A stretch of 64,000 nucleotides of DNA, from contig JAKSBN010000391.1 of NCBI GenBank assembly GCA_022361175.1, positions 8,457 to 72,456 on the forward strand. Reading direction: 5' to 3'. The stretch is from Pseudomonadota bacterium (GTDB lineage Bacteria > Myxococcota_A > UBA9160 > UBA4427). The notes below the pieces were generated by a model. That model made no database searches and was not told where the DNA came from. It saw only the letters and a list, made by a program, of their open reading frames with translations. The position numbers and the translations under genes are program-made. Position 1 is the stretch's first letter. The number at the start of each line of letters is the position of its first letter. Shown here in pieces: positions 47,376-55,011 of the stretch.

Positions 47376-47391
47376 CGGCATGTGCCTTGCA
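47376..47391 (+). promoter_or_regulatory. candidate sigma-54 (-24/-12) promoter cGGCATgtgccTTGCa
   Basis: GG at 47377-78 and GC at 47389-90 have the exact 10-nt spacing of the TGGCACG-N4-TTGCW consensus. It faces the sugar transferase gene 219 nt downstream. Confidence 0.45.
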
Positions 47392-49718: not shown

Positions 49719-50426
49719 CTAGAAAAACGTGGCTGCAGAGAAGCCAGTGGCCGCAGCACCGAAGGCTCCCTGGAACGGGAACAACAGCTGATTCAGGATG
49801 TATCCGAACTGCACGATGTACGTCGGGTTCACGACGACGATGTCGCCGCCTTTCAGCAGGATGTTCGTCGACAGGTCGCCGCGTTCGATCGCGCTCAAGT
49901 TGACTTTGAAGACCGTGACGGTGTTGCCCTCGGAGCGAACCACCCGGAGGCGGCGCTTGGCGGCGAAGAGCGTCGTCCCTCCGACCAAGCCGATCGCTTC
50001 GGCGACGCGCGTATCGCGTTCGAGCGGCAGCGTCGCCGGCTCGCGCACCTCGCCGCTCACGGTGATGAGGGCGCTCCGCGCCAGCCCCACCGAGACGGTG
50101 ACCTTGGCATCGCGCTTGAAGCGCGCGATGCGACTCTCGATGTCGCCCGCGATCTCGGCCACGGTGCGGCCCGAGGCCGGGATGTCTCCGACCAGATCGA
50201 TGGAGATCATGCCGTCCGGACGCACGACCACGGTTCGTTCAATGGCGGGCTCGGGCAGGATGAACACCACCAGCTGGTCGGGCGGGCCCACCCGGTACTC
50301 GGTCTGCACCTGGGTCCGCTGCGGAGGCGGCGACGTGGCGCACGCTCCGAGAAGGACGACCGCGGCAATGGCGGTCACCAGCCGGGCCACGGACGAACCC
50401 GAGCCGGCACGGGCCGAGACGCGCAT
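49719..50426 (-). CDS. Wza-like polysaccharide export lipoprotein (Poly_export plus SLBB)
   Basis: Lipobox VVLLGAC. YRVGPPDQLVVFI, VRPDGMISIDLVGDIPASGRTVAEI, and SLBB-like ITVSGEVREPATLPL...RVAEAIGLVGG. Confidence 0.8.
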   Translation of the reverse strand: MRVSARAGSGSSVARLVTAIAAVVLLGACATSPPPQRTQVQTEYRVGPPDQLVVFILPEPAIERTVVVRPDGMISIDLVGDIPASGRTVAEIAGDIESRIARFKRDAKVTVSVGLARSALITVSGEVREPATLPLERDTRVAEAIGLVGGTTLFAAKRRLRVVRSEGNTVTVFKVNLSAIERGDLSTNILLKGGDIVVVNPTYIVQFGYILNQLLFPFQGAFGAAATGFSAATFF

Positions 50427-50575
50427 CGTTCGAATGCTCTTTTCCAATTTGGTTCCCCTCTGCTTGGTCGACGGGCGCCCCACACGGAGCGCACGGCGGT
50501 CGTATACCGCGAAACGCCGCGGGGGCCAGCTTACACGGTGCGAGGGCGGGGCTGAGGCGGAGGAGAAAGGGTGGG

Positions 50576-50890
50576 CTAGCCGAGGGTCTCGAATCCGAAG
50601 CGGGTGTGGCCGACCTGGATCTCATCGCCGGTCTCGAGTGTGGCGGATCGGACCCGCTTCCCGTTGACCTTCGTGCCGTTGGTCGATTGGAGATCCTCGA
50701 CCAGGAAGGTGTTTTCGTCTTCGTCGTAGAGGATGAGGGCGTGCTCGCGGCTGATGCCCTCGTCGAGGAGCGTGATGTCCGTAGTCGGGTTGCGGCCGAT
50801 CAGGGTCTCTTCGGAGACGAGGTCGTACGTCATGCCCTCGAAGCCGCCGTTCAGGATCCGGAGCCGAGCTTTGGGCGCTGCATCGGACAT
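50576..50890 (-). CDS. stand-alone FHA-domain protein (104 aa)
   Basis: LIGRNPTTDITLLDEGISREHALI...LVEDLQSTNGTKVNGKRV. Confidence 0.85.
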   Translation of the reverse strand: MSDAAPKARLRILNGGFEGMTYDLVSEETLIGRNPTTDITLLDEGISREHALILYDEDENTFLVEDLQSTNGTKVNGKRVRSATLETGDEIQVGHTRFGFETLG

Positions 50891-50999
50891 GAGCTCTCCA
50901 GCGGGGGGATCCGGGCCTCTGGACGGCCGCGCGGCTCCCTCCTGCCGGCGCTATCGGCCCCGTTGGCCCGGGGCTTGAGATGCTCGATGCCGACAACCG

Positions 51000-51803
51000 T
51001 TAGAGGCGGCGGTGATCCAGCACCGGGAGGGCCTGTCGCACCCGGTCCTGCTCCTCGAGCGAGCAATCCGCCACCACCACGCCCACCCGCTCGCCGGCCT
51101 GGGCCAGTACCACACCCCAGGGGTCGACGATCATGGAGCGGCCGTAGCTGGCGCGGTTCTCGCTGTGGCGCCCCCACTGGGCAGGAGCGATCACGAAGGC
51201 CTGGCTCTCCACGGCGCGCGCGCGCAGCAGGACCTCCCAGTGGTCCTTGCCCGTTTCGGGGGCGAAGGCGCTGGGGACCGCGATGAAGCGCACGCGCGCG
51301 GCGGCCATGGCGCGGTAGAGCTCGGGAAACCGCAGGTCGTAGCAGATGGAGAGGCCCACGCCGCCGAACGGCGTGTCGGCGACGACCACCTCCTTGCCGG
51401 GCGCGAACGTGGCCGACTCTCGATAGACACCCCCGCCCGTGTGGCCCAGATCGACGTCGAAGAGGTGAATCTTGCGGTAGACCGCCACGACCCGGCCGTC
51501 CGGATCGAGCAGCGGACTGCAGTTGTGCACGCGCTCGTCGCCCTCGATGACCTCCGGGAAGCTGCCTCCCAGGAGCCACACGCCGTGGCGAGCGGCCCAG
51601 TCGCTCAGTTGGCCGACGATCTCCCCATCGAGGCCCTGGGCACAGGGGAACGCAGATCCTTCCCGGCGCAGGTAGGCGAAGTTCTCGGGCAGGGCGACCC
51701 ATTCGGCGCCCTGCTGCACGGCTTCGGACACCAGCGTCTCTGCCTGCGCGAGATTGCCCGCCAGGTCATCGGTGGACGTCATCTGAACGAGACCGACCCG
51801 CAT
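51000..51803 (-). CDS. carbon-nitrogen hydrolase (nitrilase superfamily, Nit-like)
   Basis: Glu-Lys-Cys triad contexts: VALPENF, YRKIHLFD, GLSICYDLRFPE. Confidence 0.85.
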   Translation of the reverse strand: MRVGLVQMTSTDDLAGNLAQAETLVSEAVQQGAEWVALPENFAYLRREGSAFPCAQGLDGEIVGQLSDWAARHGVWLLGGSFPEVIEGDERVHNCSPLLDPDGRVVAVYRKIHLFDVDLGHTGGGVYRESATFAPGKEVVVADTPFGGVGLSICYDLRFPELYRAMAAARVRFIAVPSAFAPETGKDHWEVLLRARAVESQAFVIAPAQWGRHSENRASYGRSMIVDPWGVVLAQAGERVGVVVADCSLEEQDRVRQALPVLDHRRL

Positions 51804-51906
51804 GGGACCTGCCTTCGGATTGGATCCGGACGATTCCAGGTCCGGACGATTCCGGTTCGGTCCGGACGACCGGACGCTCCCGGACGGGCGCGACGGAAGG
51901 CCGAAC

Positions 51907-52791
51907 TCAGGTTCGGAACTGCTGCGGGTCCACTCCCGTGCGCCGGATCACGTCGTAGAAGTCCTTGCGGTCCTTCTTGGCCAGGCGGGCCGCGCGGCTG
52001 ATATTGCCGCTGCAGCGGCGCAGCAGGCCCTCCACGTAGCGCGTTTCAAAGGCGCGCTTGGCCTCCTTGAACGACGGAATCTCGTCGCCTTCGCTGGCGA
52101 GCATCAGAGCCTCGGCCGAGAGGGCACCGCCGCCGGCCAATCGCACCGCCAGCCGCACGCGCTCGCGCAGTTCGGCCACATCGCCCGTCCAGGACTCCTC
52201 GCTGAGCCAACGACGCGCGTCGGCGGTGAATCCGATCGGCGCCACCCCGATCTCCTCGGCGAAGATGGCCAAGAAGTGGCTCGCCAACGCCAGCACGTCC
52301 TCGCTGCGCTCCGACAGCGGGACCAACCCGATGATCTGGACGTCCGCCCCGGGCAACAACCCCGAAGCGTCGCTGGAGGAGGTGGCGAGTAGGCGCAGCG
52401 AGCCATTCTGTCGCGTGGCCTGCGCCAGGCGTTCGCGCACCGACGACGCGCAGCGGTCGAGCTGCGTCACCAACAGCGTGCCCTCGTTGGCGCGACCCAC
52501 GGCCCCGTCCGGGCCGAAGAGCTCGCGCGCCTGCTGGGTCTCCGCGGCGCCCGAAACGTGCGCGGTCACCAGCGGCCGGTTGGACCGTGCACTCCAGCCG
52601 TGAATGGCCCGCGCCAAATGCTGACGACCGCTCCCCGGCGGTCCCACGACGATGACGGGCTGGCTCGAGCGCGCCGCCGAAGAAGCCCGCTCGACTGCCG
52701 TTCGCATGGCGTCGCTCGCTCCAACAATCCGGTCTCCGCGTCGTCGACCCGCGGGTCGATCAGTTGCCGTTGCAGTCGTCGTGGATTCCAT
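51907..52791 (-). CDS. degenerate sigma-54-activator-like (bEBP AAA+ plus Fis-type HTH) regulator without a receiver domain
   Basis: IVGASDAMRTAVE, P-loop GPPGSGRQHLARAIH (Arg where the Walker A Lys sits), ELFGPDGAVGRANEGTLLVTQL (no GAFTGA and no DE Walker B), WTGDVAEL, and C-terminal HTH GNISRAARLAKKDRKDFYDVIRR. Confidence 0.7.
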   Translation of the reverse strand: MESTTTATATDRPAGRRRGDRIVGASDAMRTAVERASSAARSSQPVIVVGPPGSGRQHLARAIHGWSARSNRPLVTAHVSGAAETQQARELFGPDGAVGRANEGTLLVTQLDRCASSVRERLAQATRQNGSLRLLATSSSDASGLLPGADVQIIGLVPLSERSEDVLALASHFLAIFAEEIGVAPIGFTADARRWLSEESWTGDVAELRERVRLAVRLAGGGALSAEALMLASEGDEIPSFKEAKRAFETRYVEGLLRRCSGNISRAARLAKKDRKDFYDVIRRTGVDPQQFRT

Positions 52792-53175
52792 GGCGCTCCC
52801 TGCCTTGGTCCGTCGTTTGGTCCGTCACTCGCTCGAAACGATTTCGCCTCGGCGAGTCGACGGCCTCGATTTCCCGCGCTTCCAACGCAATCCTGTCATC
52901 CAGCGATGACCCTTGGGTCGCGAGCCGCGGAACTCCCGCGAACTCGGTCGCTCGATGGTCTGCCCCGGTTCCGGAGCCGGGCCTTGAAAGTTGTTGCACC
53001 GGTGGTGCAGAACACCACCTCATCCCCATGGCCCAAAGCCCTCAGTCGCCCGTGGCAACGATACGAGACTTATTGGGAATTCGGCATCTTGTCAATCGAT
53101 TTTGCGAGTTTGCGCTGAATCCCAAAACCCTCGGTTGACGGGTCTGAAGCCCCATGGTAACCGCTGCGAGGTGCC

Positions 53176-55011
53176 GTGAATCCCAAAACCCCGACGAATT
53201 CCGACGATCTCGAACGCCTGGAGGCGCCCTTGGACGGCCGCATCGCACCGCTCCCCGACGCGCTGGTGGATCAGATTGCGGCGGGCGAAGTCGTCGAGCG
53301 GCCCGCGTCGGTGGTGAAGGAGCTGGTCGAAAACGCGCTGGATGCAGAGGCGCGTCGAGTGCGGGTCGAGGTGCGGGAGGGAGGCCGCGCCCTGATCGCA
53401 GTGAGGGATGACGGCTACGGAATGTCCCCAAGGGATGCGAAGCTTGCACTGCGTCGCCATGCGACCAGCAAGATCCGCGAGGCCGACGATCTCACGCGCA
53501 TTGCGAGCTTCGGGTTTCGAGGCGAGGCGCTGCCGGCGATCGCCTCCGTGTCCCGCTTGCGGCTGGTGACACGGGCCGCCGCGGCCGACACCGCCTGGGA
53601 GCTGCAGGTCGAGGGCGGCGAGCTGGTGCGGGACCGCCAGGTGGGCGGACCTCCCGGAACGAGCATCGAGGTGGCCGATCTCTTCGGCCAGGTGCCCGCG
53701 CGGCGCAAGTTCCTGAAGAAGCCGACCACCGAGTGGGGCCACATCGCCGACTGGTTGACGCGTTCGGCGCTGGCACTGCCGGGCGTCCACTTCGAAGTGG
53801 TCCGCGACGATCGCCCCGCCTGGGTCTGGCCCGCGACCGACGACGGCCTGGAGCGCATCGCGGCGGTGCTTTCGGAGGCCGAGGCCGAGCGCCTGGTCTC
53901 CAGCGTGCACGACGAGCAGGGCGTCGAGGTCGAGGCCTACATCTCCACTCCCGAGTTCACGCGCGGGACTGCCAACGGCCTGTACCTGTTCGTCAACGGA
54001 CGCCCGGTGCGCGATCGCCTGCTGAGACACGCGCTGCTCGAGGCCTGTCGCGACGTGCTGCCGCGCGGGCGCTACCCGACGGCGGTGTTGTTCGTCGTCG
54101 TGCCCTTGGACGCGGTGGATGTGAACGTCCACCCGGCGAAGTGGGAGGTGCGTTTTCGCGATCCCCAGGCGGTTCACGCGGCCGTGCGCCACGCGGTGCG
54201 GGGGGTGTTGTCCGAGCGGCGCTGGTTGGGAACGGCCCAAGTGGACGCCCGAGTCCCCGTCGCTCCCGCGGAGCTCCCGCGACGGCCGGAGCCGGTCGAA
54301 CCGGCGGCTGGGACGACCCGAGACTGGGTTCTGGCCGAGCGTCGCGCGGACGCGCAAATGGTGGCCGATGCACCGGCCTCCCAGGCCCCGGCGCGCCCGT
54401 TCCGCTTCAGCGAGCTCACTCTCTTGGGGCAGCTCAGGGCCACCTACCTCCTGGCCGAGGGCAAGGAGGGGCTGGTGTTGGTGGATCAGCACGCCGCTCA
54501 CGAGCGGGTGCTCTACGAGCGTCTGCGGGCCGAGTGGGTCGCGTCGCGCGTCGAACGCCAGGGGCTGCTGATGCCGCTCCACCTGGAGCTCGATCCCGCC
54601 GGCGTCGCGGCGCTGGGGGAGGCCACCGAGACTCTCGCGGGGCTCGGCTTCGAGGTCGAGGCTTTCGGCGAAACGGCGGTCGTGGTGCGGGCGGTTCCGG
54701 CGCTGCTCGGGCATCACGACCCCGCCGCGCTGGTGCGCGGCTTGGCGGCCGAGCTGCGCGAGCGCCCGCTGCGCCGAGACGAGGGCGCGGGCGGCGTCCG
54801 GCGACTGCCGGCCCTGGATTCGCTGTTCGCCTCCATGGCTTGCCACAGCGCCCGCCGCGCCGGCGAGGCGCTCGTCGAGGCGGAGCAGCGCGCGCTGTTG
54901 GACGCCCTCGACGCCATCCCGTGGGCGCCCACCTGCCCGCACGGGCGCCCCGTGGCAGTCCTGCTTTCGAGCGGTGAGATCGAGCGCCGATTCGGCCGCG
55001 ACTACGCCTGA
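53176..55011 (+). CDS. mutL: DNA mismatch repair protein MutL
   Basis: IAAGEVVERPASVVKELVENALDA, DDGYGM, FGFRGEALPAI, and C-terminal CPHGRP. Confidence 0.9.
   Translation: MNPKTPTNSDDLERLEAPLDGRIAPLPDALVDQIAAGEVVERPASVVKELVENALDAEARRVRVEVREGGRALIAVRDDGYGMSPRDAKLALRRHATSKIREADDLTRIASFGFRGEALPAIASVSRLRLVTRAAAADTAWELQVEGGELVRDRQVGGPPGTSIEVADLFGQVPARRKFLKKPTTEWGHIADWLTRSALALPGVHFEVVRDDRPAWVWPATDDGLERIAAVLSEAEAERLVSSVHDEQGVEVEAYISTPEFTRGTANGLYLFVNGRPVRDRLLRHALLEACRDVLPRGRYPTAVLFVVVPLDAVDVNVHPAKWEVRFRDPQAVHAAVRHAVRGVLSERRWLGTAQVDARVPVAPAELPRRPEPVEPAAGTTRDWVLAERRADAQMVADAPASQAPARPFRFSELTLLGQLRATYLLAEGKEGLVLVDQHAAHERVLYERLRAEWVASRVERQGLLMPLHLELDPAGVAALGEATETLAGLGFEVEAFGETAVVVRAVPALLGHHDPAALVRGLAAELRERPLRRDEGAGGVRRLPALDSLFASMACHSARRAGEALVEAEQRALLDALDAIPWAPTCPHGRPVAVLLSSGEIERRFGRDYA

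Follow-up and report, generated by a model that had tools for sequence, protein, structure and literature searches.

Within a 64,000-nt stretch of DNA from an uncultivated member of the Myxococcota (the whole stretch is hereafter the window), we found a 294-residue relative of the sigma-54 activators that is probably a minimal atypical enhancer-binding protein, descended from these activators, which has lost its motor and now serves as a sigma-54-independent DNA-binding transcription factor. Its gene lies on the minus strand (51907..52791) and encodes a short tail, an Arg-rich linker, a pseudo-AAA+ core, a lid and a helix-turn-helix; we refer to the product as the regulator. The host genome is a 5.2-Mb metagenome bin of 528 contigs with 70% GC, and the regulator gene belongs, as a single copy, to the core genes of an entire class of uncultivated Myxococcota, in which it is near-universal. 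A preliminary description of this DNA had proposed that the protein probably cannot activate sigma-54. Our analysis agrees, since the elements for ATP hydrolysis and for contact with sigma-54 are gone and the losses are family-wide; that the regulator cannot remodel the sigma-54 holoenzyme is predicted with all the firmness that sequence evidence allows.

The motifs were checked by residue-level alignment to ZraR (1ojl), NtrX (5m7n) and a canonical activator of the same phylum with a receiver domain (REC type). The preliminary description had listed a Walker A Lys replaced by Arg, a shortened GAFTGA region, a replaced Walker B DE and the lack of any receiver or sensory domain, all of which the comparison bears out. 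In the degenerate Walker A, GPPGSGRQ (residues 50–57; 52621..52644, minus strand), Arg56 stands for the Lys of the ZraR counterpart GDSGTGKE, as it does in the alignment to NtrX. The segment ELFG-PDGAVGRANE-GTLLVTQL (residues 90–111; 52459..52524, minus strand) has the GAFTGA loop deleted: after ELFG93 there are only ten residues, PDGAVGRANE, in place of the canonical HEKGAFTGAxxxxxGxFExA, making the region 8–11 residues shorter than in ZraR or the phylum activator. The Walker B that follows reads L106-L-V-T109-Q110, with TQ for DE. The L2 hairpin (~12 residues) and the arginine-finger helix FRxDLYYRL (~10 residues) are deleted as well, the latter throughout the order-level family, and the sensor-II Arg has become Ala (W201-T-G-D-V-A206-E-L), while most relatives keep GNVREL. 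The regulator consequently lacks the Walker A Lys, Walker B DE, GAFTGA, arginine fingers and sensor-II Arg that mark canonical activators. In activator hexamers the arginine-finger helix is part of the subunit interface, and because it is deleted here, mixed rings with an intact activator look unlikely.

At the N-terminus, ~20 residues separate the start from the AAA+ core and form no domain; 11 codons before the ATG the frame is closed by a stop, which leaves no room for a hidden sensory domain further upstream. The corresponding tail of relatives is variable, disordered and 25–60 residues long, without a domain match, and the disordered tail of the regulator itself is rich in Ser and Thr. 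Nor can the losses be put down to a frameshift or sequencing error, because relatives from many samples share the same deletions.

The open reading frame (ORF) is continuous and shows a coding-like codon bias, with a GC content at third codon positions (GC3) of 0.84. In Pfam, it matches Sigma54_activat at profile positions 1–76 of 168 only, together with AAA_lid_14, and in NCBIfam it weakly matches many sigma-54-activator models, each far under its cut-off (GlrR, 101 bits vs 763; the second-best match PrsR, TIGR02915, 88.9 vs 502.6; NtrX, 82 vs 600). An AlphaFold model based on 121 sequences (pLDDT 88, pTM 0.75) is confident throughout the core, and in it the regulator is confidently predicted to fold as an AAA+ α/β domain followed by a lid and a three-helix DNA-binding domain. 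A Foldseek search of solved structures with this model returned NtrX as the best match (E = 3.8e-16), then NtrC1, ZraR, PspF and VpsR. The C-terminal helix-turn-helix (residues 238–294; 51910..52080, minus strand) comprises three helices in the model, aligns with the C-termini of NtrX and ZraR, and is nearly invariant in the family.

A protein search yielded 1,254 relatives, the best 120 of which are 55–64% identical to the regulator, and in a scan with a single genome for each prokaryotic species the family was detected in 192 genomes. Of these, 80 were kept for comparison, all of them metagenome-assembled Myxococcota, UBA4427 included; some of the kept genomes bear old 'Deltaproteobacteria' or mistaken 'Spirochaetaceae' labels. 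The genus UBA4427 has been placed in class UBA9160 of Myxococcota_A (preprint 10.64898/2026.07.10.737566). Across a phylum sample of 401 genomes (threshold E ≤ 1e-50), the regulator gene is present in 25/25 genomes of the window's family, in 33 of the 38 from the rest of the order and in all 14 of a sister family of the same class (~37% identity), each time once per positive genome. The other families of the phylum gave four weak matches among 323 genomes, three of which we inspected and found to be canonical REC-type activators with GAFT(D/G)A or GSYTGA.

Within a set of 81 orthologues, no GAFTGA was found in any of those checked, nor a Walker B DE in any of the 56 in which that motif was parsed. 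The sister family has the arginine-finger-region helix and the L2 hairpin, with GAFSR instead of GAFTGA and with a P-loop that is broken differently (GEEGLDKE, AEDGVDKE). As this deep relative already lacks GAFTGA and an intact P-loop, sigma-54 activation must have been lost at the base of the class, the core having been shortened stepwise since: the AAA part shrinks, and with it the protein, from 349 aa in the sister family through ~320 aa in the order to 294 aa in the window. No member is shorter, more reduced or more divergent than the window's copy, which departs from the family at nine positions that are otherwise at least 85% conserved, the sensor-II Arg among them. The family thereby offers a natural series for the turning of an AAA+ activator into a plain DNA-binding protein. 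We also observed, on contig C111 (locus L022, 853–2106, minus strand), a second degenerate activator-like protein of 417 aa with a receiver-like N-terminus; its Walker A has Lys, its whole ELFG-GAFTGA stretch is deleted, its Walker B reads LLIRRL, and it is 37% identical to the window's regulator over the AAA core.

Conservation within the family, measured as the mean frequency of the majority residue, is distributed unevenly along the protein. It is highest in the helix-turn-helix (0.94), followed by the lid (0.83), the Arg-rich GRRRxDR linker (residues 14–22; 0.80), the AAA α/β part (0.61) and the N-terminal tail (0.35). The linker, G15-R-R-R-G-D-R21 in the window (52729..52749, minus strand), directly precedes the AAA+ core and is a signature of the family, its G15, R16, R17, D20 and R21 each being at least 90% conserved in 121 sequences. 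Invariant or nearly so are also the P-loop residues G50, G53 and G55, R61 after Walker A, and E207 and R211 of the lid ExxxR. The identity of relatives to the window's regulator, 52–64%, is comparable to what MutL, MiaA and Der show across these loci. The host genome encodes sigma-54 and at least 16 canonical activators; the loss of the motor is therefore specific to the regulator gene and does not reflect loss of the pathway.

We compared gene neighbourhoods using three look-ups of metagenome contigs and tblastn over the 80 loci. In the conserved arrangement, der, a small gene, miaA and mutL lie on one strand, and the regulator, nitrilase and FHA genes diverge from them, so that the conserved unit is mutL<>regulator-nitrilase-FHA, with the regulator head to head with mutL. 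In the window, the regulator is followed on the minus strand by a carbon-nitrogen hydrolase of the Nit family (51000..51803; CN_hydrolase, E = 3.7e-62), a stand-alone FHA protein of 104 aa (50576..50890; FHA, E = 1.8e-21) and a Wza-type gene (49719-50483), positioned as described before. The nitrilase directly follows the regulator in 80/80 loci and mutL stands beside it in 77, while the FHA gene occurs in 66/80, a downstream Wza in 47 and an ExeA-like ATPase in 34. Among the 14 loci in which FHA was not found beside the nitrilase, some end too soon and several have ample downstream sequence.

All four sister-family loci contain mutL<>regulator-nitrilase-FHA and none has polysaccharide genes near the regulator; the family also occurs in genomes without a polysaccharide locus within 8 kb. 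Since the Wza link is missing from so many loci and from the sister family, the polysaccharide locus appears to be a later neighbour and not what the gene exists for: the regulator is probably not dedicated to the adjoining polysaccharide genes. A conserved fourth gene after FHA was considered and rejected, as the next gene varies, being a polysaccharide gene in some members and a LOG-family gene in deep-branching ones. The latter gene (GGGPGxMEAANRGA ... PGGFGTLDE) lies convergently after FHA in the sister family and some deep-branching members; at loci L073, L104, L113, L115 and L116 it is a few genes from miaA, without polysaccharide genes there.

Upstream of the regulator lies a sigma-70-type promoter (53067..53106, minus strand), made up of an A-tract CGCAAAA, TTGACA (53095-53090), a 17-nt spacer and TAAGTC (53072-53067). 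Position-wise conservation, computed on 60 anchored sequences, yields the form CGCAAAA, TTGACA, 17 nt and TAnnTC (more loosely TTGACA-N17-TAnnnC), after which most relatives have GGGGG and an ATG within ~40 nt; CATTGACAA is found in 40 of the 78 regions upstream of regulator genes. A second sigma-70-type promoter, read from the spacer sequences, faces mutL. The pattern CGCAAWW-N4-TTGACA occurs once in the 5.2-Mb genome and hence defines no regulon. Two exact copies of the 14-nt repeat GGTTTTGGGATTCA lie 61 nt apart on the minus strand at the 5' end of mutL (53116-53191); as a candidate operator the repeat was rejected, because it is not kept in 77 related spacers. With a class-wide single copy and a conserved sigma-70-type promoter among housekeeping genes, a general, not a locus-specific, role can be argued, and because the conserved neighbours are housekeeping genes, the regulator is more likely a general regulator of the lineage than one specific to polysaccharide.

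The translation start of the window's copy deserves separate mention. Its leader (52760..53029, minus strand) still contains the ribosome-binding site and ATG with which the gene starts in relatives; this ancestral ATG (53029) lies 238 nt before the present one at 52791, out of frame with it, and opens an 89-codon ORF that overlaps the start of the regulator. GC3 in the leader ranges from 0.45 to 0.85 over the three frames without being consistently high in any, and is not coding-like when compared with the value of at least 0.84 seen in real genes. A GGGAG ribosome-binding site precedes the ATG at 52791, and the window's regulator seems to be translated from this downstream start with a site of its own. 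The segment 52760-53029 may be a genuine long leader that includes an upstream ORF; otherwise it reflects a minor error in the assembly. A frameshift that would restore a longer N-terminus was rejected, given the stop 11 codons upstream and a frame from the ancestral ATG that is not coding-like.

Taken together, we favour a scheme in which an ancestral sigma-54 activator would have lost its ATPase motor and sigma-54 contact loop. Its near-invariant helix-turn-helix would recognise a conserved operator, and the P-loop scaffold, Arg-rich linker and lid may have been retained as a module for dimerisation and for binding a ligand or partner instead of as a motor. In this scheme, the regulator would modulate sigma-70-type promoters as a repressor or as a class I/II activator, in the manner of NtrX, VpsR and TyrR. 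Atypical enhancer-binding proteins are regarded as linking sigma-54 with sigma-70 regulation. A review passage names six characterised ones, TyrR, HupR, HsfA, PhhR, NtrX and VpsR (PMC6158489). The regulator shares with them a homologous AAA+ core without a functional GAFTGA, in which, as often in this class, the Walker motifs are degenerate, and lacks the N-terminal sensory or receiver domain of the class. To our knowledge, all six keep such a domain along with a full-length AAA+ core.

Several individual proteins help to place the regulator. NtrX of Brucella abortus (PDB 5m7n/5m7o/5m7p) heads the fold matches and ranks second among the sequence matches in the PDB, aligning over residues 16–286, helix-turn-helix included. 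Its NtrC-type AAA+ core likewise has no functional GAFTGA, but NtrX retains a receiver domain, a full-length core and the Walker A Lys, whereas the regulator has no N-terminal domain and has its L1 and L2 loops and arginine-finger helix deleted. VpsR of Vibrio cholerae (PDB 7v2b), another fold match, also lacks GAFTGA and has a non-consensus Walker B; VpsR has a receiver domain and a complete AAA+ core and binds c-di-GMP, and the regulator's link to polysaccharide is only partial. According to the same review, VpsR uses sigma-70 RNA polymerase and controls polysaccharide (vps) genes, and NtrX is a repressor (PMC6158489). PspF of Escherichia coli, a sequence and fold match, resembles the regulator in consisting of an AAA+ core and a helix-turn-helix with no regulatory domain in cis, but PspF is fully active as a sigma-54 activator, its GAFTGA, both Walker motifs and arginine fingers being present. 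PspA restrains it in trans. PrsR, the PEP-CTERM-box response regulator, is tied to exosortase/PEP-CTERM polysaccharide loci like the one adjoining the regulator; the regulator differs in having neither a receiver domain nor functional AAA+ motifs, in its score far under the PrsR cut-off, and in adjoining a polysaccharide locus in only 47 of 80 cases. PexR of Myxococcus was considered as a relative and rejected, being a GAF-domain sigma-54 activator of unrelated architecture (PMC12754779).

The family is thus best read as an extreme form of the atypical enhancer-binding protein, without an input domain and with a trimmed core, which among the readings of its sequence is the best-supported one. 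It is set apart by the physical deletion of motor loops and helix and by its retention, with a nearly frozen DNA-binding domain, throughout a class of uncultivated, widespread Myxococcota. Its members currently carry labels such as 'GlrR' or 'sigma-54-dependent regulator', which mislead the inference of sigma-54 regulons in such genomes.

Some observations weigh against this assignment. Among 74 family sequences parsed at the key Walker A position after the third Gly, 45 have Arg and 27 have Lys, and with about one third of the family keeping the Lys, some nucleotide-dependent function may persist. The Pfam profile HTH_8 scores the regulator at 18.1 bits, under its cut-off of 22. Our search for an operator in the mutL-regulator spacer found only the two back-to-back promoters and the A-tract conserved, and in the sister family the spacer sequence, CGCAAWW-N4-TTGACA included, is not recognisable. 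Finally, all carriers of the family are uncultivated Myxococcota.

Alternatively, the regulator might be a receptor for a nucleotide or second messenger, whose degenerate P-loop pocket and GRRRxDR linker would bind ATP without hydrolysis, or c-di-GMP in the way of FleQ and VpsR; the ligand would set DNA binding and thereby the expression of genes for surface polysaccharide or motility. A change of the Walker A Lys to Arg often keeps nucleotide binding while abolishing hydrolysis, and the (nearly) invariant P-loop glycines, R61 and lid residues E207 and R211 would suit such a role, as would the presence of VpsR among the fold matches and the partial association with polysaccharide loci. In FleQ, the linker residues R138 and R144, R185 after Walker A and R334 of the lid bind ATP and c-di-GMP (PMC10723142), and by analogy the GRRRxDR linker may sit where the FleQ linker arginines touch these ligands. 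This equivalence is drawn from position only, however, and the linker is modelled at low confidence (pLDDT ~55). The sister-family P-loops GEEGLDKE and AEDGVDKE moreover argue against a conserved phosphate-binding pocket throughout the class, and the conserved neighbourhood is one of housekeeping genes. We regard such a receptor as unlikely.

The preliminary description had suggested a different role, in which the regulator antagonises or partners a true sigma-54 activator at promoters of the polysaccharide locus, possibly with phospho-Thr input through the FHA protein. Activators without a regulatory domain, PspF for one, are controlled in trans by a partner encoded alongside, and the regulator does lie a short way upstream of Wza-type export genes in the window and the 47 related loci. 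The FHA gene is adjacent in 66/80 and in all four sister-family loci, the phospho-Thr-binding residues of its product (G32-R33, S47-x-x-H50 and N71-G72) are intact and at least 95% conserved in 65 orthologues, and the tail of the regulator could supply Ser and Thr. Several observations speak against this role. The link to polysaccharide is secondary, missing from 33/80 loci and from the sister family, and a canonical activator as co-encoded partner was sought and rejected: a second activator-like gene lies within 8 kb in only 1/80 loci, and there is none on the window's whole contig. The deleted arginine-finger helix belongs to the very interface at which such a partner would join the ring. 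The candidate sigma-54 promoter at 47376-47391 (plus strand; CGGCATGTGCCTTGCA) has two mismatches to TGGCAC-N5-TTGCW, and matches of this quality occur at chance level in the window (17 found vs 19.7 expected); the related loci show no recurring sigma-54-like site at a constant position. As for phospho-Thr input, the FHA gene has a sigma-28-like promoter of its own and was not found beside the nitrilase in several loci with ample sequence, while the Thr that commonly precedes GRRR in relatives is Ala in the window's copy. The FHA protein may contact the regulator, for which adjacency is the one argument; the role as antagonist or partner as a whole appears quite improbable.

Still less probable is that the regulator is a Fis-like architectural protein, a global nucleoid-associated factor made constitutively and bound at many sites, with the AAA remnant as a dimerisation scaffold only. 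In favour of such a protein are the conserved, near-consensus sigma-70-type promoter with its A-tract, the class-wide single-copy status and the stepwise shortening of the AAA part (349, ~320 and 294 aa) described above, and its many sites would constrain the helix-turn-helix to the extreme degree observed; but the lid and linker (0.83 and 0.80) are conserved beyond the need of a mere scaffold. That the gene is decaying, or that an assembly error or frameshift hides intact motifs, would fit a most reduced and divergent copy with nine altered positions, an out-of-frame ancestral start codon and a bin of 528 contigs, but can be dismissed as highly improbable, given a continuous, codon-biased ORF with a good GGGAG site before ATG 52791, a model confident throughout the core, and identical deletions in relatives from independent samples.

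One may speculate on how a protein without an input domain is set. An attractive, if doubtful, idea is a general, class-wide regulator whose activity is controlled in trans: the FHA protein might dock on a phosphorylated, Ser/Thr-rich tail, or a nucleotide might be held between the GRRRxDR linker and the dead P-loop. If this were true, the shortening from 349 through ~320 to 294 aa would document how a sigma-54 activator is pared down towards a Fis-like protein without ceasing to be essential to its lineage.

The sigma-28-like promoter of the FHA gene (50952..50978, minus strand) reads TCAAG-N15-GGCCGATA, or TCAAG-N16-GCCGATA when written as a pattern, and agrees with the sigma-28 (FliA) consensus TAAAG-N14-GCCGATAA. 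Of 62 nitrilase-FHA spacers, 59 have the TCAAG anchor, almost always with a -10 element of the CCGAT/CCGAA type, and the host genome encodes a FliA/WhiG sigma factor (284 bits vs a cut-off of 190). The pattern has 33 sites in the genome, compared with ~4 expected from an estimate based on base composition. Judged by their translations, the genes behind these sites include a PilT-like ATPase, a type IV pilin, a chemoreceptor, a CheY-like protein, a Ser/Thr kinase and a GGDEF protein, suggesting that the FHA protein belongs to a motility-type regulon.

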